A DNA stretch of 64,000 bases, from positions 32,001 to 96,000 of IMG/VR virus record IMGVR_UViG_3300030099_006395; one strand, given 5' to 3'. This document shows, one piece after another, positions 3,536-62,062 of this stretch. The stretch is from a virus. The notes under the pieces were generated by a model. It searched no databases. It was not told where the DNA came from and saw only the letters and a list, made by a program, of their open reading frames with translations. The first letter of the stretch is position 1. Each line of letters opens with the position of its first letter. The translations under genes were made by a program, and so were the position numbers.

Positions 3536-4333
3536 ATGGACATGAATGCAATCAAAAACAGGCTAAATCAGCTACAATCAACAACTTCAAATAAAGATAA
3601 CTTTTGGAAACCTGAACCAGGTAAACAAGTAGTTCGTATTGTACCTTATTTACACAACAAAGACAATCCATTTATTGAATTGTTTTTTCACTATAATTTA
3701 GGTAACAATAAAACTTACCTATCACCAGCATCATTTGGTAAACCAGATCCAGTAGCAGAATTTGCTGACAAACTAAAATCAACAGGTAATAAAGACGAAT
3801 GGATTCAAGGTAAAAGACTTGAACCTAAAATGAGAACTTTTGCACCTGTGATTGTTAGAGGTCGTGAATCTGAAGGTGTTAAGTTTTGGGGATTCGGTAA
3901 AACTGTATATCAAGAATTACTTGGTGTAATAGCTGACCCTGATTATGGTGATATTACAGACGCTACCAATGGTAGAGATATCATGATTGAAAGACAGACT
4001 CCTGCTGAGGCTGGAAATCAATATGGTAAAACTACTGTAAGAGTTAAACCTAATCAAACTGCTATGACAGATGATAGTAATTTGATGGAAAGTTTGTTAA
4101 CTAATCAATCTGATTTAACCGAGTTATATACAGAACCATCTTATGATGATTTAAAAGAAGCTCTTCAGAATTATCTAAATCCAAGTGATGATGATACTAC
4201 TGAAACTACTACAACTTCTAATGGTGTAGCAGCTAGTACAGCTCCAACTACAAACACAGGAACTGCAACTACTACAGACACTAAAAAAACAGAAAATGTA
4301 GAAGACGCTTTTGACCAATTATTCAATAGTTAA
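3536..4333 (+). CDS. Single-stranded DNA-binding protein (T4 gp32-like)
   Basis: FWKP, VRIVP, WGFGKTVY, DYGDITD..GRD motifs; acidic tail ending DAFDQLF; upstream of recA. Confidence 0.85.
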   Translation: MDMNAIKNRLNQLQSTTSNKDNFWKPEPGKQVVRIVPYLHNKDNPFIELFFHYNLGNNKTYLSPASFGKPDPVAEFADKLKSTGNKDEWIQGKRLEPKMRTFAPVIVRGRESEGVKFWGFGKTVYQELLGVIADPDYGDITDATNGRDIMIERQTPAEAGNQYGKTTVRVKPNQTAMTDDSNLMESLLTNQSDLTELYTEPSYDDLKEALQNYLNPSDDDTTETTTTSNGVAASTAPTTNTGTATTTDTKKTENVEDAFDQLFNS

Positions 4334-8343: not shown

Positions 8344-8674
8344 ATTAGATAAAACAGATAGTAAAGTAATACATTCAAATGAAACATATGATGTTATAGA
8401 TAATACAAATCTAAATAATCTTATAGTTTCAAAAACTATATTACATGAGGGAAAAGAAACTGGTGGTCACAATCACAAAGGACAAGAAGAAGTTTATATA
8501 TTTACAGAGGGTTCTGGTGTGATGCAAATAGATGATGAAAAGTTTTTAGTTACGAAAGGTGATATAGTATTAATACCAGATGGAGCATTCCATAAAGTAT
8601 TTAACACAAGTAACTATAAGGCAAACAATCCTTTAATATTTGTATGTGTATTTGATGGTGGGAGAAATCATTAA
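8333..8674 (+). CDS. Cupin domain protein
   Basis: GHNH..QEEVYIF..G.G and GDIVLIP.GAFH motifs; ATG 8333 follows AAGGAAG. Confidence 0.85.
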   Translation: MKIKLDKTDSKVIHSNETYDVIDNTNLNNLIVSKTILHEGKETGGHNHKGQEEVYIFTEGSGVMQIDDEKFLVTKGDIVLIPDGAFHKVFNTSNYKANNPLIFVCVFDGGRNH

Positions 8675-9299
8675 AGTATCTGATTTTATAATAGAACCTG
8701 TACCTCGTAGTGCTATTCAATCATTTGTACATAAATGGCATTATTCACATGATACTAATGGTGTACAACAAACACAATGTTTTGCTTTGTTTGATGACAA
8801 TAGAATGATAGGTGCTATGATATATGCTTTACCATCCATGAAATCAACAGCAGCAAAATATAATCCAGATAATCCTGATAGGTGTTGGGAGTTACGAAGA
8901 TTATGTTGTATTGATGATACACCAACAAACACAGAAAGTTATTTTATAGGGCAGACTTTAAGGTGGATAAGACAAAATACTGATATAGAAGTTATTGTAT
9001 CTTATGCTGATTTAGAACAAGGGCATGAAGGAGTCATTTATAAAGCCACTAACTTTCATTATTTAGGCCAAAGTGGTGGTGGTAGAAATTTAATGGTAGA
9101 TGGAAAAAAGTTTCACGCTAGGTCTTTAAATCAAAAAGAAAAACCCTATGGTAGGGATTTAAAAAGAAGATGGGAAAACAAAGAGGGGCATAGTTTTTGG
9201 GATTCAAAACAAGATATGTATTTTGTAAATACAAAACCAAAAAATATCTATGTTTATTACTTAAATAAAAAAATAAAAAAGAAATTACTTAAAAAATGA
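8655..9299 (+). CDS. Mom-like GNAT-fold DNA-modification protein (copy 1)
   Basis: HYSH, WELRRL, NTESYFI, VSYAD..QGH.G.IYKATNF; start uncertain (8640-8676). Confidence 0.8.
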   Translation: MVGEIIKVSDFIIEPVPRSAIQSFVHKWHYSHDTNGVQQTQCFALFDDNRMIGAMIYALPSMKSTAAKYNPDNPDRCWELRRLCCIDDTPTNTESYFIGQTLRWIRQNTDIEVIVSYADLEQGHEGVIYKATNFHYLGQSGGGRNLMVDGKKFHARSLNQKEKPYGRDLKRRWENKEGHSFWDSKQDMYFVNTKPKNIYVYYLNKKIKKKLLKK

Positions 9300-20002: not shown

Positions 20003-20215
20003 ATGAATAAATTATTAATGGCAGCTATTGATAGTTACCAAGCACAAAAAACAGAAGCACTAGCTCATTTGGATTTATTGTTCAATGATGCCACAATGAT
20101 AGGTGAACACACAGATTTAACAGCTGAAGTAAAAAAATGGACAATGAGTTTAGCAGAAGCTGAAGGTTGTTTAAAAGTATTGGATACACATTTTTATGTC
20201 GGTAAATCCAAGTAA
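20003..20215 (+). CDS. Hypothetical helical protein
   Basis: ORF with IGEH motif, packed operon. Confidence 0.55.
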   Translation: MNKLLMAAIDSYQAQKTEALAHLDLLFNDATMIGEHTDLTAEVKKWTMSLAEAEGCLKVLDTHFYVGKSK

Positions 20216-20951
20216 AATAACCATAAGAGAAATCTCAAAGAAGATAGCCAAAGATATGATTGTAAAAAATCATTACAGTCACAAGTGGACAAGTTGTAGA
20301 TACGCTTTAGGTATATTTTATGAAACAGATAACCAACACGCATTCTTTGATGAGAAGGATGAGAAGTTAGCTGGTGTGGCTATCTATGGTTATCCTGTTG
20401 GAAGAAGTGCTCCTAAATCTATCTCACCTGAATTAAAGGAAGAAGAAGTATTAGAGTTGACAAGGTTATTTATCTTTGATGATTATGGTAAGAATACAGA
20501 AAGTGTGGTTTTATCTAAAACATTTAATTGGTTAAAGGAAAACGCTAGTGAGATAAAAGTATTGGTAAGTTATTCAGACCCAGAACAAGGACACTTGGGT
20601 ATTATTTATCAAGCTACGAATTGGATATATCAAGGTAATAGTATAAGGTTAATGCCTAACTACGCTATACGACTTACAGAAGATGGTACTTGGATGCACT
20701 CACGAAATGTAACAACAAAGTTTGGTTCTCATAACCTTGAGAAACTAAAGAAAAGAATCGGACACACATTTTGGAGAAAGGAAGAACCTGAAAAACACAG
20801 ATATTTGTATTTGTTATGTGGTAAGAAAGATAAGAAAAAGATTATGAATACATTGATACATAAACCTAAGCCTTATCCAAAAGATGCTTATCAATTTTAT
20901 CCAGAGATACAAAAGATTGAAGTAACTTCAAAGGAAAAATTTTATGAATAG
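20196..20951 (+). CDS. Mom-like GNAT-fold DNA-modification protein (copy 2)
   Basis: HYSH, LELTRL, NTES, VSYSDPEQGH.G.IYQATNW, KHRY, PYPK. Confidence 0.82.
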   Translation: MSVNPSKITIREISKKIAKDMIVKNHYSHKWTSCRYALGIFYETDNQHAFFDEKDEKLAGVAIYGYPVGRSAPKSISPELKEEEVLELTRLFIFDDYGKNTESVVLSKTFNWLKENASEIKVLVSYSDPEQGHLGIIYQATNWIYQGNSIRLMPNYAIRLTEDGTWMHSRNVTTKFGSHNLEKLKKRIGHTFWRKEEPEKHRYLYLLCGKKDKKKIMNTLIHKPKPYPKDAYQFYPEIQKIEVTSKEKFYE

Positions 20952-21801
20952 AATAAGTTATAGTCAATTGTCAATGTTTAATGAGTGTCCATTGAGATGG
21001 AAATTAAATTATGTAGACGATTTATCTATATCAGAACCAAGTATTCACCTGTTATTCGGAACAGCGATGCACGAAGTTATACAAACTTGGTTAGAAGTTA
21101 TGTATCACGATAGTATCAAAAACGCTGATAAGTTAAATCTTGAACAAAGACTACATGATAAAATGTATGAGAGGTTTCAAATAGATAAGGAAGCTTATGG
21201 TAAGAATCCTTGTACACTTGAAGAAATGAAAGAGTTTTTTAATGATGGTGTGGCTATACTTGATTTTGTTAAAAAGAAAAGAGCAGATTATTTCCAAAAA
21301 AGACAATATGAATTAGTTGGTTGTGAAGTTCCTATTGAAGTTATGTTAAAAAAAGATATTAAAATGGTTGGATATTTAGATGTTGTGTTAAGACATAAAC
21401 CAACAGATACAATTACGATTATTGATATAAAAACATCTACTCGTGGTTGGAATAAATGGATGAAAGCTGATAAGAATAAAACTCAACAATTATTATTATA
21501 TAAACAATTTTATTCTAAACAATATGGTACACCGATTGAAAATATAGATGTTGAGTATTTTATAGTAAAAAGAAAACTATGGGAGAATACAGACTTTCCA
21601 CAGAAAAGAGTTCAAAAGTTTGTACCTGCGAGTGGAACTGTAAGTATGAACAAAGTAAATAATGGCCTAAATCTATTTTTAGAAAATGCATTTGATGACA
21701 AAGGTGAATATAGGACTGATAAGATATTTGCATTACCAAGTAAAAAATCTTGTAGATTTTGTGAATTTAAAAATACGGAGTATTGTAGTTATGGTGTATA
21801 G
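20944..21801 (+). CDS. PD-(D/E)xK nuclease, Cas4/RecB-like
   Basis: ISYSQL..F..CP, FGTAMHE, GYLD, IIDIKTS, QL..Y, CRFCEF....C. Confidence 0.88.
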   Translation: MNRISYSQLSMFNECPLRWKLNYVDDLSISEPSIHLLFGTAMHEVIQTWLEVMYHDSIKNADKLNLEQRLHDKMYERFQIDKEAYGKNPCTLEEMKEFFNDGVAILDFVKKKRADYFQKRQYELVGCEVPIEVMLKKDIKMVGYLDVVLRHKPTDTITIIDIKTSTRGWNKWMKADKNKTQQLLLYKQFYSKQYGTPIENIDVEYFIVKRKLWENTDFPQKRVQKFVPASGTVSMNKVNNGLNLFLENAFDDKGEYRTDKIFALPSKKSCRFCEFKNTEYCSYGV

Positions 21802-31685: not shown

Positions 31686-32740
31686 TGAAATCATTTGAAC
31701 CAACAATAACAAAACAAGACATACAAAAAGTTACAGAACTATTAGAATCAGGTAACATAGGGTTCGGTAGTAATGTAAAAGTATTTGAAGATAAATTTTC
31801 TAAACATTCAGAAAAAAAATATAATATCGGATTAAATTCTGCATCAGCTGCAGCATATTGTCTATTCGCATATCTATACGATAAACATGGTAGTTGTGAT
31901 ATTTACACACCTTCATTGGGATTTACATCAGTTTCATGGGCAGCAGAAAAAAATGGTCATCGTGTTATTTTTGTCGATGTAGATGATAATTTATTATTTG
32001 ATTTTGATTCTTACAAACAATTACGACAAGACCCTTATATAAAAAAAGGTGAGGGTAATAAAACAATATTGATGCCAGTGTTATATGGTGGTGTAAGTAA
32101 TGTACCAAATTTTAATGAACAGGTTACAGATGAAATAGTTATAGTTGATTCAGCACATTGTATTCAACCAACAATAAAATCTGATTACATATTCTTTTCA
32201 TTTCATCCAATCAAACCTCTAACTATGAGTTGTGGTGGGTTATTAGGAACTGATGATGAAGAAGCTAACGAATACATATGTAGTTATAGAAACTTTGGGA
32301 GGGAGAATATTGGTGACACATACGACATAGTAAATCCTGGTTTTAACTTCTATATGAATAATTTAAACGCCACGTTAGGTTTATCACAATTAGATAGTTG
32401 TTTTCAAAACATAAAAAAAAGAAAATATAACTTGGAATATTTGCAGAAAAGCATTAGATTAGACATAGGACGTTTTACAGAACACGATGAAAAATCATCA
32501 TATTATTTAGGAACACTTATTTTAAATGAAAGGGGTTCAGAGGATTTGAGACATAAATTAAAAAAGAATGGATGTGATGCATCATTTCATTATCCATATT
32601 TACATCTCTCTCAATATTATAACTCTAATGTACCATTAGGTAATTTAGAAGATTTAGATGATAGGATTATTAATTTACCAATTCATCAAAATTTATCAGC
32701 TGTCGATGTCAGTAGAATAGTGGGGGTTATTAATGAGTAA
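31685..32740 (+). CDS. DegT/PseC-family PLP aminotransferase
   Basis: VDSAH, FSFHPIK...GG, GFNF; follows pseB. Confidence 0.88.
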   Translation: MKSFEPTITKQDIQKVTELLESGNIGFGSNVKVFEDKFSKHSEKKYNIGLNSASAAAYCLFAYLYDKHGSCDIYTPSLGFTSVSWAAEKNGHRVIFVDVDDNLLFDFDSYKQLRQDPYIKKGEGNKTILMPVLYGGVSNVPNFNEQVTDEIVIVDSAHCIQPTIKSDYIFFSFHPIKPLTMSCGGLLGTDDEEANEYICSYRNFGRENIGDTYDIVNPGFNFYMNNLNATLGLSQLDSCFQNIKKRKYNLEYLQKSIRLDIGRFTEHDEKSSYYLGTLILNERGSEDLRHKLKKNGCDASFHYPYLHLSQYYNSNVPLGNLEDLDDRIINLPIHQNLSAVDVSRIVGVINE

Positions 32741-47962: not shown

Positions 47963-49333
47963 ATGAACTATACAACAACTACAAATGGAGCGATAACAAA
48001 CAAAACATCAGACAAAGAATGTTTAGATTTGTTTCAACGCATTGGTAACATGAGAAATCATGATAGATTGTATATCCTTGAAAATTTCAACAAGGCGTAT
48101 GAGGAAGATAAAGAACTTGCAACACAAGTTCTATTTTGGGCGAGAGCAGCACGAATAGGTTCAGGTGAGAGAAAAACTTTTCACACAATCTTACGGGAGA
48201 TTGGAAAGACATCACCTGATTTTATATCAGACAATGCAAAACTCATTGCTGATTTGGGTTATTGGAAAGACCTAATTGAGTATTTCCATATACCAAAGGT
48301 TATATCAGTTTTCGCCCAAGCAATTCGTGAAAAGGATAGGTTAGCATGTAAATGGGCTCCAAGAAAGTGTGCGGTATTAAGAGATGAACTTGGTTTCACT
48401 AACCGAGAATACAGAAAATGGTTGAAGAGATATTCTGAAACTGTTGAACAAACGATGTCTGAAAAAGAGTGGTCTGATATAAACTATTCATCCGTCCCCG
48501 GTTCTGCTATGAGACGATATAGTGGAGCATTTACTAAACAAGACAGTAAACGATTCGATGAATGGAAAGAGGACAAAACCACAAAGGCATCTGTATCAGC
48601 TACCTATCCACACGAAGTGTTAGCTTGTGATGATGACAAGTTAGCAGAAAAATTATGGGATAACTTACCTGATTTATTATCAGAGAGTGAAGAGAATATT
48701 CTACCAATGATTGATGTGAGTGGTTCAATGATGGGAAAACCATTAGCAGTCGCAATGTCATTAGGTATGTATTTATCTGAAAGAACTAAAGGTGAGTTTA
48801 AAGATTTATTTTTAACATTTAGTGAGAATCCAGAGTTAGTAAGATTAGAAGGTGATTCAGTAGCAGAACGATTGAGAAACATATCACAGGCAGATTGGGG
48901 CATGAATACAGATTTCAGTAAAGCATTTCAACACATATTAGATGTGGCTACAAAACACAATGTATTGCCCGATTCGATGCCAACTATGTTATTGGTGTTA
49001 TCAGATATGCAATTTGATGAATCACAGAACAGTAGTTTTTATGGTAGTAAATCAATGACACACTTTGGACATATGAAAGAAGAGTATGAAAAAGCTGGAT
49101 ACAAATTACCAAAGATAGTGTTTTGGAACTTGGATGCACATATGGGAACACCAGCAAGATGTTCTGATGATTCAGTAGCGATGGTTAGTGGATTCTCACC
49201 AAGTATTATGAAAGCAGTGTTAAACGCTGAAGAGTTCAATCCAATTAGTGTAATGATGGAAGCACTTAAAGATATTAAACCAGATTGTAATAATTTACCA
49301 TCAGAATTTGAATATAAAAGAGAGACGATATAA
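47963..49333 (+). CDS. DUF2828-family protein (helical domain + vWA; Ro60/TROVE-like architecture)
   Basis: T.NGA, G.GER, GYWKDL, KWAPR, MIDAS DVSGSM, FLTFS..P, WGMNTDF, LSDMQFD, VFWNL, VSGFS. Confidence 0.85.
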   Translation: MNYTTTTNGAITNKTSDKECLDLFQRIGNMRNHDRLYILENFNKAYEEDKELATQVLFWARAARIGSGERKTFHTILREIGKTSPDFISDNAKLIADLGYWKDLIEYFHIPKVISVFAQAIREKDRLACKWAPRKCAVLRDELGFTNREYRKWLKRYSETVEQTMSEKEWSDINYSSVPGSAMRRYSGAFTKQDSKRFDEWKEDKTTKASVSATYPHEVLACDDDKLAEKLWDNLPDLLSESEENILPMIDVSGSMMGKPLAVAMSLGMYLSERTKGEFKDLFLTFSENPELVRLEGDSVAERLRNISQADWGMNTDFSKAFQHILDVATKHNVLPDSMPTMLLVLSDMQFDESQNSSFYGSKSMTHFGHMKEEYEKAGYKLPKIVFWNLDAHMGTPARCSDDSVAMVSGFSPSIMKAVLNAEEFNPISVMMEALKDIKPDCNNLPSEFEYKRETI

Positions 49334-50370
49334 TGCAAAAGTACGATAGAAAATATTTTGAAGATAATTTTGATAAACCACATATCCCTAATATACCTGA
49401 TAGTATTAAGGTAAAATCAATAAGGAAAAAAATACTTAAAATAAGTGACATAAATAGTGATACATTTTTAAGTCAAATTAGAGTAAACGATGATATAGCT
49501 GCTAGAGCTACAAGATTAAACGGATCATTTAATACAGGAATTGATTGGGATAGTCCACTACCAATAGTGAAGTTAAGAGATGATGGTGGTTATGATTTAA
49601 TAGATGCATTTGGCAGATTTCAAATGTTTGAATTGAATGGACAAGAATACTGGATTATGATTGTTGTAGAGTGTGATTCACATAATGAATTGAGGTTAAG
49701 AGGGTGGGCTAATAAACAATTGTTTATAGTACCAAACTCAACGAAAGATAATATTGAAACAATATCTACCATGGTTAGAAAAAAAATGATTAAACCTACG
49801 AAAAGAAATTTTACAAGGGAATTAAATATCATTGAACCACATAAAGACCCTGATATAAAAAAGGATATAGTGAATCAATTGATGGATGTTTTTAAGGTAA
49901 AATCAACTGTAAAACCTAAAAGATTTGTTTCATATTCAGCAGCAACCATAATGAAAAATTGGGTTAAACCACATTTCGCTGATGAAAAGAAAATTGGGTT
50001 TAAGTTAGGATCAAAAGGTGAACCACTTTTTAGTAAATTAGCTAATTGTTATTTTGGTATTTTACAATATAAATATGAATATAGAAAAGTATTACAAGCT
50101 ATAGAGATGAATGTGAGAAAAAATGCTCCATTGAAAGTTTTAGGTTTATCAGAGGGTAAAGGTATGACAATGAAGAAACTTAAAAATGATAGAGCTGGTA
50201 TTAAAAGAAATATAACTAAAATAACTAATAATATTGATAAACTTGTTTCAAAATACCATGGTGAAGAATCTAAAATTAAGTGGGAAGAGGTTATAGATTT
50301 ATTTGGTTTTATACCTGAAAGTGTTAATGAAGATGTAAAAGAACCCGTAGAATATAAGGAGATTGTATAA
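49333..50370 (+). CDS. Hypothetical protein with ParB/Srx-like N-terminal region
   Basis: PLPIV......YDLIDAFGR resembles the ParB IDG..R motif; coupled to DUF2828 gene. Confidence 0.5.
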   Translation: MQKYDRKYFEDNFDKPHIPNIPDSIKVKSIRKKILKISDINSDTFLSQIRVNDDIAARATRLNGSFNTGIDWDSPLPIVKLRDDGGYDLIDAFGRFQMFELNGQEYWIMIVVECDSHNELRLRGWANKQLFIVPNSTKDNIETISTMVRKKMIKPTKRNFTRELNIIEPHKDPDIKKDIVNQLMDVFKVKSTVKPKRFVSYSAATIMKNWVKPHFADEKKIGFKLGSKGEPLFSKLANCYFGILQYKYEYRKVLQAIEMNVRKNAPLKVLGLSEGKGMTMKKLKNDRAGIKRNITKITNNIDKLVSKYHGEESKIKWEEVIDLFGFIPESVNEDVKEPVEYKEIV

Positions 50371-52817: not shown

Positions 52818-52969
52818 ATAGTATAAATTAAAGGAGTATGCTTATGATATTAGAGTTATTATTCAATCCATTCGCGTGTGTAATGTGGTTTTGGTTGGGC
52901 GTTTTCGTCTGGAGTTGGTTATCTACCGCGAATTAATGTAAAAAAAACGTCTTTTTTTGTAAAAAAACG

Positions 52970-52999
52970 TTGACTCATATGGCTTTTTCGCCGTATATT
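52970..52999 (+). promoter_or_regulatory. Sigma70-like promoter of the putative ncRNA
   Basis: TTGACT-N18-TATATT with no ORF downstream. Confidence 0.72.
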
Positions 53000-53178
53000 G
53001 TAGTATAAGATTTTTGAAATGAAAGAATTAGTGGGAGTACAAGGGGTATAATTCCCGACGGGGGCATACTTACTTAAAGAGAGACAATACACTAGCGTAA
53101 CCCACCTCTCGCCCACGGCTAGTTTAAAGGTAAATGACGGGTAGTTACTCTATAAGAGCCTATGTATTTACCACTTTT

Positions 53179-53250
53179 GCGGGGTAAGAATCAAGAGAGA
53201 TTCGTTATACTACCAGTATAAAGGGTGTGGGGCAGTTCCACAACCCCGCT
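53179..53250 (+). tRNA. Non-canonical tRNA-Gly(ACC)-like cloverleaf
   Basis: Acceptor GCGGGGT/ACCCCGC+T; D-like arm GAATC/GATTC; anticodon arm TTATA-CTACCAG-TATAA; T-like arm TGTGG-GGCAGTT-CCACA. Confidence 0.6.
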
Positions 53251-53390
53251 CAACGAGAGAAACCTGCATACTTGAGTAAGGTGAGAATATTTCTCCGAAC
53301 CACGTTTCGTTAATATTCATACCTATCACCATACTTCAGTCCCTCCAGGTTCTCTCCTCACACTTGATCATGGGTGTATTATACGCTCTA

Positions 53391-53430
53391 GGGTGTCAGT
53401 TTTACTCCTTTCTCTGGCACCCTTTTTTTT
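53391..53430 (+). terminator. Intrinsic terminator with anti-SD loop
   Basis: GGGTGTCAG-TTTTACTCCTTTCT-CTGGCACCC-T8. Confidence 0.85.
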
Positions 53431-53433
53431 GCC

Positions 53434-53498
53434 TGTTACATATTGTTACAAATTAAATGAAATAAAACGTTGTATAGTACGCCAGAAAGCCTTATATT
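53434..53498 (+). promoter_or_regulatory. TGTTACA-N3-TGTTACA box plus promoter of AAA+ gene
   Basis: Box 53434-53450; TTGTAT(53470)-N17-TATATT. Confidence 0.68.
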
Positions 53499-53533
53499 TG
53501 ATCGTAAGTTAAATGATAAAAAAAGGAGTATTT

Positions 53534-54724
53534 ATGTCAAAACAAATTTTAACCCCCGATGTTGTAGTGAGGATAGAAAAGTCCGGTAATCGTTACAACG
53601 CGTGGGATACTGATGGTAATAAACGAACATCAGAGATTACATCTGGTTGTAGGAAGAACGCCTTTAATGGTGGTTATCTATTAGGTAGGTTTCCTTCTAC
53701 TGCCTCTAAATCTGGTTTCGCGTGGAGGAAAGTTACTGATTCTGTTGTAGAAACAGCAACTCCTGTCGTGGATAATTCCTCAATAGAGGTACCGACCGAC
53801 CACGCTGAAGTTCTTAATTTTATACACTCTTCTTACTCTTTAAAACCAAAGATGTTAATGATGTCAGAACTTAAATGGAAGTATCTGATTCGTTCTGGTG
53901 TTAGAGGTAAGAATATTATGATGACAGGCCCTGCGGGTTGTGGTAAGACTATGGCAGCTAAGTCATTGGTTAACTCACTTGATAGGCCTGACTATTACTT
54001 CAATTTAGGAGCGACACAAGATCCTCGTTCTACTCTGATTGGTAATACTCACTTCGATTCAAAGAAGGGTACTTACTTTTCAGAATCTCTCTTCGTGAAA
54101 GCGATTCAAACACCAAACGCCGTGATACTATTAGATGAGTTATCAAGGGCTCACCCAGACGCATGGAATATCTTAATGACAGTTCTCGACTATGGGCAAA
54201 GATATTTAAGGTTGGATGAAGCTAGTGGGGCTGATACTATTAAGGTTGCAGATGGTGTTACTTTCGTTGCCACAGCAAACATTGGTAATGAGTATACTTC
54301 TACTAGAGTTATGGATAAGGCCCTCATGGATAGGTTCACTATTGTTGAGATGGATGTACTAACAGAAGAGGACGAGAACTCTCTTCTTAATATGATGTTT
54401 CCTTCGGTTGACTCTGTACTACTAGGTAATGTGGCTAAGATAGCGACACTAACAAGAACCGAGTCTGGTAGTGAAACAGCTAGGATTACTAGTGGTATTA
54501 GTACGAGAACCACGGTAGAGTTATGTGGGTTACTATTCGATGGCTTCTCATTACAAGAAGCGGCTGAGGTCAGTATCTATCCCCAGTATGATAACACTGG
54601 TGGGGTAGACAGCGAGAGAACCTTTGTGAAGCAGATAGTCCAAAAGTTCTGTGATGACGGCTCAAGCGATGACTTGTTCAATGAGGACGAGATGGCTGAG
54701 GCGACAGAGGACACTACCTACTAA
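53534..54724 (+). CDS. MoxR/CbbQ/NirQ-type AAA+ ATPase
   Basis: GPAGCGKT, LLDELSR, FVATAN, D.ALMDRF, ISTR; AAAGGAGT RBS before ATG 53534. Confidence 0.9.
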   Translation: MSKQILTPDVVVRIEKSGNRYNAWDTDGNKRTSEITSGCRKNAFNGGYLLGRFPSTASKSGFAWRKVTDSVVETATPVVDNSSIEVPTDHAEVLNFIHSSYSLKPKMLMMSELKWKYLIRSGVRGKNIMMTGPAGCGKTMAAKSLVNSLDRPDYYFNLGATQDPRSTLIGNTHFDSKKGTYFSESLFVKAIQTPNAVILLDELSRAHPDAWNILMTVLDYGQRYLRLDEASGADTIKVADGVTFVATANIGNEYTSTRVMDKALMDRFTIVEMDVLTEEDENSLLNMMFPSVDSVLLGNVAKIATLTRTESGSETARITSGISTRTTVELCGLLFDGFSLQEAAEVSIYPQYDNTGGVDSERTFVKQIVQKFCDDGSSDDLFNEDEMAEATEDTTY

Positions 54725-59966: not shown

Positions 59967-60040
<74 letters not shown>

Positions 60041-60043
60041 CAT

Positions 60044-60386
60044 GGGGTCGACATGGAATCGATTGCTAGATTTTTGACATAAAGTGCAAGTAGCGTGATT
60101 CACTCACGAATCAAACATACGATAATCGGCAACGAATATCAATACATGGCAGTAGCGTAGTCTACTTCCCATCACTCCTTGATTTCTGATAGAGGATAAA
60201 GTGGTGTCATATCAGAAGAACCTCCTTTATGAATGGGTTGGGAGAATACTAATTTACATTCCATCTTTGAGCAAACAGATGTAAAACAGTAATCTGACTT
60301 TGTTAATAAGAAAGAAATTAACTAAACTTGTAAATGACTTTATGTAGGAAACTGGTAAGACGGGGGTTCGAATCCCCCCGACTCCA
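60044..60386 (+). ncRNA. ssrA: tmRNA
   Basis: 5' GGGGTCG pairs with 3' CGACTCC-A including G3.U70; GGGGGTTCGAATCCCCC T arm; tag frame 60128-60160 GNEYQYMAVA*. Confidence 0.93.
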
Positions 60387-60397
60387 CAAATTAAACG

Positions 60398-60427
60398 TTG
60401 ACTTTAATAACAAAAATGGAGTATATT
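60398..60427 (+). promoter_or_regulatory. Promoter of uvsE (likely leaderless)
   Basis: TTGACT-N18-TATATT-ATAGT-ATG. Confidence 0.7.
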
Positions 60428-60432
60428 ATAGT

Positions 60433-61353
60433 ATGAATAATATTGGTTATGCATGTATTAACATGAATCTATCTAAATGTAAACCGAAGATTACTACTAA
60501 TCGTAGTATGATAAAAAGAACATTTACAGAAAAAGGTTTACCATACGCATCTGAACTAGCGTTACAAAATTGTAAAGACTTACTTACAATACTCAAGTGG
60601 AACAAAGCTAATGGTATTAATTTCTTTCGTATGTCTTCAGACCTTATACCATGGGCTTCTGAATACAAGTTGGATGATTTACCAGACCATTGGGATATAG
60701 TAGCTACATTGGGTGAATGTGGTAAGTTTGCTGAAGAGAATAATATTCGTATTACATCTCATCCTGGTCCTTTCAATGTTCTTACCTCACCACATGAACA
60801 TGTAGTTGAGAATTGTATCAAAGACTTGTCTATACATGGTGAAGTGTTTGACATGATGGGTTTATCTCGTACACCATACAACAAGATTAATATACATATT
60901 GGTGGTGCTTATGGTGACAAGGTATCAGCTATGGAACGATTCTGTAAAAACTTTCATCGTCTACCAGATTCAGTTAAGTCTCGTCTTACGGTTGAGAATG
61001 ATGACAAGGCTTCTATGTATTCTGTCGTTGATTTGTATGAGGGTGTATACAAGGTTATAGGTATACCGATTGTATTTGATTACCATCACCATAGATTCTG
61101 TACAGGTGGACTGACAGAAGAAGATGCACTTGAAGTTGCTATATCTACTTGGCCTACTGACATTGTACCTGTTGTACACTATTCAGAGTCTCGTAGTAAA
61201 GAACAACTAGATGAGTCTATTAGACCACAAGCACATTCAGATTATGTACTTGACTATATTGACACCTATGGTAATAGAGTTGATATTATGATAGAAGCAA
61301 AAGCCAAAGAGTTGGCTGTTATGAAATACAAAGAGTTACATGGATTATGTTAA
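60433..61353 (+). CDS. uvsE: UV DNA damage endonuclease
   Basis: IGYACIN, FFRMSS, HPGPF, NIHIGG, VENDD, VFDYHHH, VHYSES, AHSD, MIEAK.KE. Confidence 0.95.
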   Translation: MNNIGYACINMNLSKCKPKITTNRSMIKRTFTEKGLPYASELALQNCKDLLTILKWNKANGINFFRMSSDLIPWASEYKLDDLPDHWDIVATLGECGKFAEENNIRITSHPGPFNVLTSPHEHVVENCIKDLSIHGEVFDMMGLSRTPYNKINIHIGGAYGDKVSAMERFCKNFHRLPDSVKSRLTVENDDKASMYSVVDLYEGVYKVIGIPIVFDYHHHRFCTGGLTEEDALEVAISTWPTDIVPVVHYSESRSKEQLDESIRPQAHSDYVLDYIDTYGNRVDIMIEAKAKELAVMKYKELHGLC

Positions 61354-62062
61354 TACTAATAAATTAATAGTAAGAGAAGTTACAAAGTCTATAGCTAAAA
61401 AGATGGTAGTTAAATATCATTACTCTCACCTATGGACAAAGTGTTCTGTTGCATTAGGATTATTTTATAACACAGGTAAACAACATTCTTTCTTTGATGA
61501 AGAAGAAGAAAAGCTTATCGGTGTTATAATATATGGTGACCCGATTGGTAGACATAGTGGTGGTTCTATATCAGAGTTATTAGATAGAACTGATGTATAT
61601 GAATTAACAAGGTTATATATCCACGATGGTTATGGTAGTAATATTGAGAGTTGGTTTATCTCTCAATCTTTTAAATGGTTGAAAGAGAATACAAACATCA
61701 AGGCTTTGATATCATACGCAGACCCAAAAGAAGGACATGCTGGTACAATCTACCAAGCCACTAATTGGATATATCAAGGTAATAGTATTAGACCAAATGA
61801 TACATATAGTTTTAAATTGAAACCAGACGATGAGTGGATACATGGAAGAACATTGGCTAATACATATAAGACAAATGATATAGAGAAGTTAAAGAAAAAA
61901 ATTGGACATACCTTTTGGTATAGAGTAGAACCGTTGAAACATCGGTATGTATATCTACTAAAGAATAAAAGGAAGTTAATGAAACACTTAAAGCATCCTA
62001 TTAAGCCATATCCGAAGGCGGATGATGTAGATGATTTAAAAGTAACAAAGGTGGTGGTATGA
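61340..62062 (+). CDS. Mom-like GNAT-fold DNA-modification protein (copy 3)
   Basis: HYSH, YELTRL, N.ESWFI, ISYADP..GH.GTIYQATNW, KHRY, PYPK. Confidence 0.82.
   Translation: MDYVNTNKLIVREVTKSIAKKMVVKYHYSHLWTKCSVALGLFYNTGKQHSFFDEEEEKLIGVIIYGDPIGRHSGGSISELLDRTDVYELTRLYIHDGYGSNIESWFISQSFKWLKENTNIKALISYADPKEGHAGTIYQATNWIYQGNSIRPNDTYSFKLKPDDEWIHGRTLANTYKTNDIEKLKKKIGHTFWYRVEPLKHRYVYLLKNKRKLMKHLKHPIKPYPKADDVDDLKVTKVVV

Follow-up and report, generated by a model that had tools for sequence, protein, structure and literature searches.

The Mom protein of phage Mu moves glycine from Gly-tRNAGly to the N6 position of adenine in double-stranded DNA, where a rearrangement then yields the carbamoylmethyl group (PMC13219725). 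This transfer of glycine from a charged tRNA to DNA was shown only in 2023-2026 (PMC13219725). All Escherichia coli Gly isoacceptors work as donors and Gly-tRNAAla does not, and the 3' acceptor end has been suggested as the part of the donor that Mom reads (Silva et al., Nat Commun 2026, PMC13219725; preprint 10.1101/2023.03.24.534169). The same paper makes no mention of a phage-encoded tRNA-Gly-like RNA, and our literature search found no paper describing a Mom-linked tRNA. Here we describe a tRNA-Gly-like cloverleaf at positions 53179-53250 of a 64,000-nucleotide (nt) stretch of viral DNA (positions 32,001 to 96,000 of IMG/VR record IMGVR_UViG_3300030099_006395), the whole of which is called the window below. 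The source contig (113 kb, approximately 63% complete) represents a large uncultured marine phage. The RNA belongs to a family that is physically tied to Mom genes, and we judge it moderately likely to be a dedicated, non-translating glycyl donor for Mom.

The locus resembles the Mu system in its enzyme, a PF25680 protein that is present here in three copies and adjoins the RNA in most other carriers. In the published work Mom draws its glycine from tRNA-Gly, and the presumed recognition site, the 3' acceptor end, is conserved in the window RNA. In contrast to Mu, which uses any host tRNA-Gly isoacceptor and encodes no tRNA, this phage supplies a deviant RNA of its own. The precedent for a dedicated glycyl donor is the non-proteinogenic tRNA-Gly of Staphylococcus that feeds the Fem transferases (PMC9976931). 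There, too, a glycine tRNA is reserved for an aminoacyl-transferase of the GNAT fold that works outside translation; canonical elements have been exchanged and the translation machinery is escaped, as we propose for the window RNA. The staphylococcal molecule differs in being a recognisable tRNA, in being chromosomal and in serving a cell-wall precursor rather than DNA as the acceptor. The window RNA departs more radically from the canonical form, with a GGCAGUU T loop, U8 lost, positions 32-38 paired and a loop length that varies in the family. A non-proteinogenic tRNA for a GNAT aminoacyl-transferase would be a known kind of molecule, and its use for DNA modification would be what is new.

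The cloverleaf and its homologues

The element itself is the following:

53179..53250, + strand: tRNA-Gly-like cloverleaf, non-canonical, 71 nt plus discriminator U73 (minimum free energy fold, covariance models, covariation)

The cloverleaf proper occupies 53179-53249, and U73 is at 53250. Its 5' part reads GCGGGGU, AA, GAAUC-AAGAGA-GAUUC, G, UUAUA-CUACCAG-UAUAA and its 3' part AGGG, UGUGG-GGCAGUU-CCACA, ACCCCGC, U. All the elements of tRNA geometry that a first-pass annotation had listed can be read there: a 7-bp acceptor stem, a 2-nt linker, a 5-bp D arm, a 5-bp/7-nt anticodon arm, a 4-nt variable region and a 5-bp/7-nt T arm, followed by U73. The anticodon position is ACC, and CCA is not encoded. 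Both the minimum free energy structure and the centroid of the isolated 73-mer are this cloverleaf (-27.8 kcal/mol, z -4.12), none of 200 shuffles folded as well, and the structure is retained when the entire 436-nt non-coding interval is folded. The cloverleaf is confirmed as real, far beyond chance.

While the cloverleaf geometry, the glycine identity nucleotides and an evident descent are shared with canonical tRNA-Gly (RF00005), the elbow is not. Position 8 is A, the D loop AAGAGA is without GG, and the T loop reads G54 G55 C56 A57 G58 U U; missing from the window copy are U8, G18-G19, T54-Psi55 and A58. The absence of U8, of the D-loop GG and of UUCRA had been claimed in the first-pass annotation and is borne out by these letters. 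The other structured RNAs of the window, a transfer-messenger RNA (tmRNA) and a tRNA-Arg, have canonical T loops (GTTCGAATC). Tools for tRNA detection, which the annotation had proposed as a check, do not recognise the element: ARAGORN run on the window called only tRNA-Arg(UCU) and the tmRNA, and Rfam (including RF00005) gave nothing at 53179-53250, neither at the gathering score nor at E<=10. The tRNA-like domain of a tmRNA was rejected as an identity for the element, whose anticodon arm is complete; the tmRNA of the window lies elsewhere, at 60044-60387, according to both ARAGORN and Rfam.

Homologues were sought through the AAA+ gene immediately downstream, which has at least 193 relatives in IMG/VR. 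Among 80 of these AAA+ loci, fetched and examined, a homologous cloverleaf stands upstream of the gene in five, one of which (L012) has two in tandem. In the six cloverleaves from related phages all pair cells are standard (132/132, 100%), and 12 of 22 pairs show compensatory changes. Covariance model R1 searched over the 80 AAA+ loci returned the seed sequences only, with no further members. The larger family was retrieved with a motif that consisted of the invariant D-loop and T-loop words and left the acceptor end and the anticodon arm free. The motif led to 56 further viral loci, and R1 accepted 50 viral hits (42 distinct), including phages of 62-72% G+C. Over the 42 distinct viral members, 96.7% of cells are paired and 18 of 23 pairs are compensatory, with covariation in all four helices; as a control, pairing falls to 33-45% when the 3' partners are displaced by one to three columns. 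The T stems differ in sequence among members. The window copy scores 101 bits with R1 and 93 bits with the broader model R2. The same motif identified 21 true members in GTDB genome contigs, mostly metagenome-assembled genomes (MAGs) of Planctomycetota, with several per genome. The family thus exceeds 70 copies in phage contigs and bacterial MAGs. Its fold, homologues and covariation together identify a real, selected and widely distributed RNA structure, and the homologue check proposed in the first-pass annotation found both the cloverleaf and the glycine determinants kept across the family.

The family has no Rfam entry. BLAST of the 501-nt locus and two high-GC members against 50,697 GenBank phage records gave no match, so that no cultured carrier phage can be named, and the exact T-arm/acceptor word had no hits in viral contigs. 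Single Planctomycetota MAGs carry three to five separate cassettes of mom plus the RNA; those recorded are in VGYT01 (L237, L250, L254, L263, L286), JAAYCR01 (L270, L279, L287) and JAUWNJ01 (L245, L248). This multiplicity suggests a multi-copy mobile element or several prophages.

The retrieval pattern determines how conservation is to be read. Since the D and T loops were fixed in it, their invariance in the retrieved sets is ascertainment; the acceptor end and the anticodon arm, which were free to vary, are the informative parts. Bacterial glycine determinants include G1-C72, C2-G71, G3-C70, U73, C35 and C36 (PMC9976931), and the first-pass annotation was right that the window copy has them all. 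Of the scorable rows of the viral alignment, all 40 have G1-C72 and 39 of 40 have C2-G71; G3-C70 is found in 33 of 41, the others being mostly C-G. U73 occurs in 41 of 42 viral members and in 19 of 21 genome members, where the other two have A73. C35-C36 is kept in 41 of 42 viral and in all 21 genome members, the anticodon position being NCC. The G10-Y25:G45 triple is also a bacterial glycine determinant (PMC9976931), and the window has G10-C25 with a G at the second position of the variable region (G45). At their 3' ends the members read UCAA, U plus a U-run or, in one high-GC clade that encodes CCA, U-CCA, which matches how real tRNA genes end.

The anticodon loop is treated differently from these determinants. 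A Watson-Crick pair joins positions 32 and 38, which covary (CG 28, AU 6, UA 4), so the true loop of the family is NNCCA on a 6-bp stem; the 5-bp/7-nt anticodon arm of the first-pass annotation holds for the letters of the window but not family-wide. Within the 32-38 pair the loop is 4, 5 or 6 nt long (6, 7 or 8 when positions 32 and 38 are counted). Position 33 is U, A, G or C across the family, U33 often being lost, and position 34 is free. The family does not keep a decoding loop. The remark in the annotation on the rarity of A34 among tRNA-Gly is correct but has no bearing here, position 34 being U, A, C or G in the family.

More distant relatives connect this RNA to ordinary tRNAs. Run on the whole contigs of 24 related phages, R2 returned weaker hits of 49-62 bits (L226-L233), which ARAGORN calls as tRNA-Gly(UCC) or tRNA-Gly(ACC). 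These callable relatives have a canonical UUCGA T loop and a D-loop GG, yet they share A8, the 5-bp D stem and the 32-38 pair with the window RNA, which identifies the latter as a derived tRNA-Gly. Two of them stand directly upstream of Mom. A third form of the family, in L204, has the D loop GAAAAA, the T loop UGCAAGU and an encoded CCA. Its two identical copies (L204:2792-2869 and 3845-3922) are 1 kb from each other and closely precede a Mom gene. Across the three states the D and T loops change jointly, as expected of an elbow contact that was remodelled and not simply lost; with three states only, this is an observation and not a test.

These data bear directly on whether the RNA could be a working translational tRNA-Gly(ACC), perhaps with I34, that aids the phage in decoding GGN codons. 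Such a role would agree with the anticodon loop of the window copy (CUACCAG, 7 nt, with U33 and A37) and with the ARAGORN-callable tRNA-Gly genes at equivalent family positions in relatives. It is difficult to reconcile with A8 in place of U8, the lack of G18-G19 and the presence of G54-G55 and G58 instead of T54-Psi55 and A58, or with the failure of ARAGORN and of the Rfam tRNA model to see the element. Members with 6-nt and 8-nt loops (counting 32 and 38), members without U33 and the Watson-Crick 32-38 pair also speak against it, as do the canonical T loops of the genuine tRNA-Arg and tmRNA of this phage. We regard a decoding role as quite improbable.

Linkage of the RNA to Mom genes

The window encodes three Mom-family proteins, all of which exceed the Pfam cut-off:

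8640..9299, + strand: Mom-family gene 1, 219 aa (PF25680, 136.7 bits)
20196..20951, + strand: Mom-family gene 2, 251 aa (PF25680, 177.1 bits)
61340..62062, + strand: Mom-family gene 3, 240 aa (PF25680, 173.3 bits)

All three keep a conserved arginine and serine spaced 13 residues apart, which, from that spacing, would correspond to R111 and S124, essential residues of Mu Mom (PMC13219725). Gene 3 is the nearest to the RNA, 8.1 kb downstream of it. Nuclease-like genes are coupled to genes 2 and 3: gene 2 is followed by an exonuclease-like phrog_69 gene (20196-21801 together), and the end of an endonuclease-like phrog_8420 gene (60334-61353) overlaps the start of gene 3. The arrangement brings to mind a pairing of Mom with restriction endonucleases that has been reported for jumbo phages (PMC7824862).

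The link between the RNA and Mom is a property of the family. All open reading frames (ORFs) within 6 kb of the 50 viral hits were clustered, and the dominant family was found at 41 of the 50 loci, on the same strand and usually directly upstream of the RNA. This family is Mom (PF25680 at E 1e-29 to 1e-50; phrog_1384). At 38 of the 50 viral hits the same-strand Mom ORF runs into the RNA, its 3' end overlapping the cloverleaf, and at one viral locus the RNA precedes Mom. On genome contigs the RNA overlaps the 3' end of a Mom ORF in 20 of 21 hits, and the remaining hit lies approximately 320 nt from the end of its contig. The reading frame of the overlap is fixed (UCA AGA GAG read as SRE, GGG CAG UUC as GQF). 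At these 38 viral and 20 genome loci mom stops at a UAA at cloverleaf nucleotides 7-9 or beyond the RNA, and never before it; L088:4790-5575 and L245:1491-2291 are examples of such embedding, from the sets L085-L140 and L234-L299. Since the ORF never stops before the cloverleaf, a cut by RNase P at G1 would leave a non-stop mom mRNA. The overlap may reflect regulation, compaction or ancestry.

In relatives of the window, a syntenic Mom gene lies 5.3 kb (L115) and 2.2 kb (L096) downstream of the RNA. Co-occurrence was counted over 24 contigs of at least 60 kb from the phage group of the window, a fragmentary set in which kinship was ignored. Seven contigs have both the RNA and Mom, one has Mom only, three have the RNA only and 13 have neither (Fisher p 0.0023, uncorrected for phylogeny). 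Both are absent from the sole relative that is 95% complete.

Some defences target tRNAs, and tRNAs carried by phages are known to act against them. The window RNA might accordingly be a decoy or sponge that draws a tRNA-Gly-directed host factor away from host tRNA-Gly; such a factor could be a defence nuclease or a TacT/AtaT-type GNAT toxin reading U73 and G71. The acceptor features read by TacT, U73 and G71, are indeed conserved (PMC9976931). The near-obligate physical tie to mom and the co-occurrence with Mom would, however, be left unexplained, and the varying loop length and position 33 fit mimicry of an anticodon loop poorly. The analysis identified no target of this toxin kind. The decoy for anticodon nucleases put forward in the first-pass annotation accordingly gained no specific support, and we consider a decoy of any of these kinds improbable.

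Anatomy of the locus and its surroundings

The cloverleaf sits in an ORF-free gap of approximately 580 nt (52937-53512), which contains, in order, a promoter, a 170-nt leader, the cloverleaf, a 125-nt 3' module and a hairpin followed by U8. The features other than the cloverleaf are:

52970..52999, + strand: sigma-70-like promoter, TTGACT-18-TATATT, of a stand-alone RNA gene (consensus scan, 10/12 matches)
53006..53178, + strand: phage-specific 5' leader, not found in L005, L020 or L011; contains a variable hairpin insert (~53030-53175)
53251..53375, + strand: 3' RNA module, predicted to be co-transcribed (fold z -3.5; covarying helix)
53391..53430, + strand: intrinsic-terminator-like hairpin, GGGUGUCAG...CUGGCACCC then U8 (sequence reading; full-length fold)

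The consensus match suggests a transcription start downstream of 52970-52999. In L005, L020 and L011 the same promoter block stands 5' of the cloverleaf, with a leader of only approximately 10-25 nt. The leader hairpin of the window was rejected as a functional domain of the tRNA-like RNA: its fold does not reach significance (z -1.39), it occurs only once in the 113-kb contig and it is not conserved. RNA-library contigs from relatives skip 53018-53126 of the leader.

The 3' module consists of a helix GAGAGAAACCUG/CAGGUUCUCUC around CAUACUUG...CAGUCCCUC, followed by CUCAC. The trailing CUCAC is pyrimidine-rich and anti-Shine-Dalgarno-like. No Rfam family matched the module. It is present without the cloverleaf, upstream of the AAA+ gene, in L008, L013, L015 and L056, and the inner pairs of its helix covary (CUG/CAG, CAC/GUG, GCU/AGC, CGC/GCG, CGG/CCG); on both counts it is an element independent of the cloverleaf. 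In L013 the module begins directly after the promoter. The terminator-like hairpin was missed by a simple terminator scan on account of its 14-nt loop. The loop (53400-53411) shows UUUACUCCUUUC-type sequence resembling the anti-Shine-Dalgarno region of 16S rRNA, and loops of this type recur in related phages (L005, L008, L012, L013, L020). In L011 the cloverleaf stands alone between promoter and terminators.

This arrangement, together with the overlap with mom, could mean that the fold is a processing or regulatory element. It would recruit RNase P or RNase Z and trim the stop and 3' end from mom mRNA, limiting toxic Mom, and in the window it would free the flanking RNA modules in the manner of tRNA punctuation. 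In keeping with this, the mom ORF enters the cloverleaf in one frame at all 38 viral and 20 genome loci and cleavage would give a non-stop message, the cloverleaf of the window lies between the leader and an independent 3' module, and the phage encodes a tmRNA. Processing does not, however, account for the conserved C35, C36, U73 and C2-G71 or for the CCA encoded in one clade. Moreover, the RNA in L011 has nothing to release, and the 3' module exists without the cloverleaf in four related loci. As the whole explanation a processing element seems to us rather unlikely; a processing role and a glycyl-donor role are not mutually exclusive.

RNA-library contigs from two studies cover the cloverleaf, and the locus is present in many marine metagenomes. 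A further metatranscriptome contig (X17) was rejected as evidence of a transcript, since it spans 52967-53139 including promoter DNA and hence defines no transcript. X18 and X20, which do cover the cloverleaf, were rejected as evidence of expression; they derive from relatives and, being contigs, show neither transcript ends nor strand.

The window covers the replication and nucleotide-metabolism region of the phage, whose contig encodes a DNA polymerase, a ribonucleotide reductase and proteins resembling the UvsX recombinase and the DnaB helicase. At 59967-60387 the tmRNA (tag GNEYQYMAVA) begins 3 nt after tRNA-Arg(UCU), and in the relative L230 a tmRNA likewise lies near the tRNA-Gly. Outside the window, ARAGORN calls a 95-nt tRNA-SeC(UCA)-like gene on the same assembly (G000:C1:103633-103727; L302:7734-7828), which may be a suppressor-type tRNA or a false call.

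At 47963-50370 the gene for a DUF2828+DUF7788 protein (phrog_850, 'RNA-binding protein', Ro/vWA-like) shows translational coupling with an unannotated ORF of 345 aa. The highly conserved MoxR/CobS-like AAA+ gene (phrog_249) used above lies 4 kb downstream, at 53513-54724. The DUF2828/AAA+ pair is syntenic in two related contigs, one carrying L003/L013 and the other L002/L022. The RNA is thus located between genes for a DUF2828 (Ro/TROVE-like vWA) protein (47963-49333) and a MoxR-type AAA+ protein, and could be their Y-RNA-like partner, Ro-type proteins having been reported to work with tRNA-like RNAs (PMC7824862). YrlA, the Y RNA that acts with Ro (Rsr), is likewise a non-coding RNA with a tRNA-like module. 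The RNA is found upstream in just 5 of 80 AAA+ loci, however, and two contigs with the closest DUF2828 genes (83% identity) span the interval without a cloverleaf. Outside the phage group of the window the RNA accompanies Mom, not DUF2828 or MoxR. Its termini form an acceptor stem and no Ro-binding helix, its anticodon arm is complete, and no Rfam Y RNA was hit. We consider a Y-RNA role most improbable.

A proposed glycyl donor for Mom

With glycine identity and the acceptor end kept, decoding features lost and the RNA tied to mom, a dedicated donor is the simplest reading of these observations. Among the three roles offered in the first-pass annotation, the glycyl donor for non-ribosomal chemistry is the one we favour, on the glycine determinants kept family-wide and the physical tie to Mom, a link that the annotation had not seen; the decoy and the Y-RNA-like domain did not hold up.

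We propose that the sigma-70-type promoter of the window RNA drives synthesis of a multi-module precursor of approximately 425 nt, from which host RNase P would release the 5' end at G1 (53179) and a 3' nuclease would cut after U73 (53250). CCA would be supplied by a host CCA-adding enzyme; no such enzyme (PF01743) was found in the 113-kb contig, so maturation would depend on the host. Host glycyl-tRNA synthetase (GlyRS) would then glycylate the RNA through G1-C72, C2-G71, G3-C70, U73, C35 and C36, while A8, the AAGAGA D loop, the GGCAGUU T loop and the closed 32-38 pair would bar it from EF-Tu and the ribosome. The three Mom paralogues would place the glycyl group on adenine N6 of phage DNA, where its rearrangement to N6-carbamoylmethyl-adenine would block restriction. 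Having its own promoter and lying 8 kb from the nearest Mom gene, the window RNA must act in trans. The 113 kb assembled contain no canonical tRNA-Gly, no second copy of the cloverleaf and no tRNA array.

Several points weigh against a dedicated donor. Mu Mom accepts all host tRNA-Gly isoacceptors (PMC13219725), so a private donor is unneeded in principle, and GlyRS would have to accept an altered elbow and a 5-nt loop. In the main alignment the D and T loops are invariant owing to the retrieval pattern. The co-occurrence test rests on fragmentary contigs and is phylogenetically uncorrected, and among its 24 contigs three carry the RNA without a Mom gene and one carries Mom without the RNA. 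In the window 8 kb separate the RNA from the nearest Mom gene, and the link is one of family association and co-occurrence, not of adjacency. When the 80 Mom loci nearest to Mom gene 3 were scanned with R1 and R2, the RNA was found within 4 kb in only one, L204 with its two copies. As most Mom genes have no copy nearby, only some Mom systems have the RNA as an accessory. Finally, the RNA-library contigs represent relatives that miss parts of the leader and of the 3' module, and they may reflect DNA carry-over.

A broader proposal can be made more tentatively. The RNA and Mom may form a two-part hypermodification cassette, in which Mom is accompanied by its own orthogonal, non-translating tRNA-Gly, in phages as well as in Mom-bearing Planctomycetota and other bacteria. 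The RNA would usually be embedded in the 3' end of mom, and its excision by RNase P would destroy the mom message, so that donor supply and enzyme dose regulate each other; the window would then represent an unlinked form acting in trans for three paralogues. We regard this extended scheme as possible but doubtful.

If the window RNA is indeed a dedicated donor, some viruses bring their own source of glycine for DNA modification, as opposed to the published view in which Mom scavenges host tRNA-Gly. Protection of phage DNA would then be insulated from host translation, from tRNA-targeting defences and from competition with EF-Tu. After the cell-wall tRNAs of staphylococci, it would be the second natural case of a tRNA retired from decoding that serves a GNAT transferase. 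The family makes it testable which parts of tRNA-Gly are needed by Mom and by GlyRS. It also shows that genes of this kind are invisible to standard tRNA finders, with consequences for annotation. With its rebuilt D/T elbow, the RNA would be a natural, compact and orthogonal tRNA-like scaffold, which may suit engineering.

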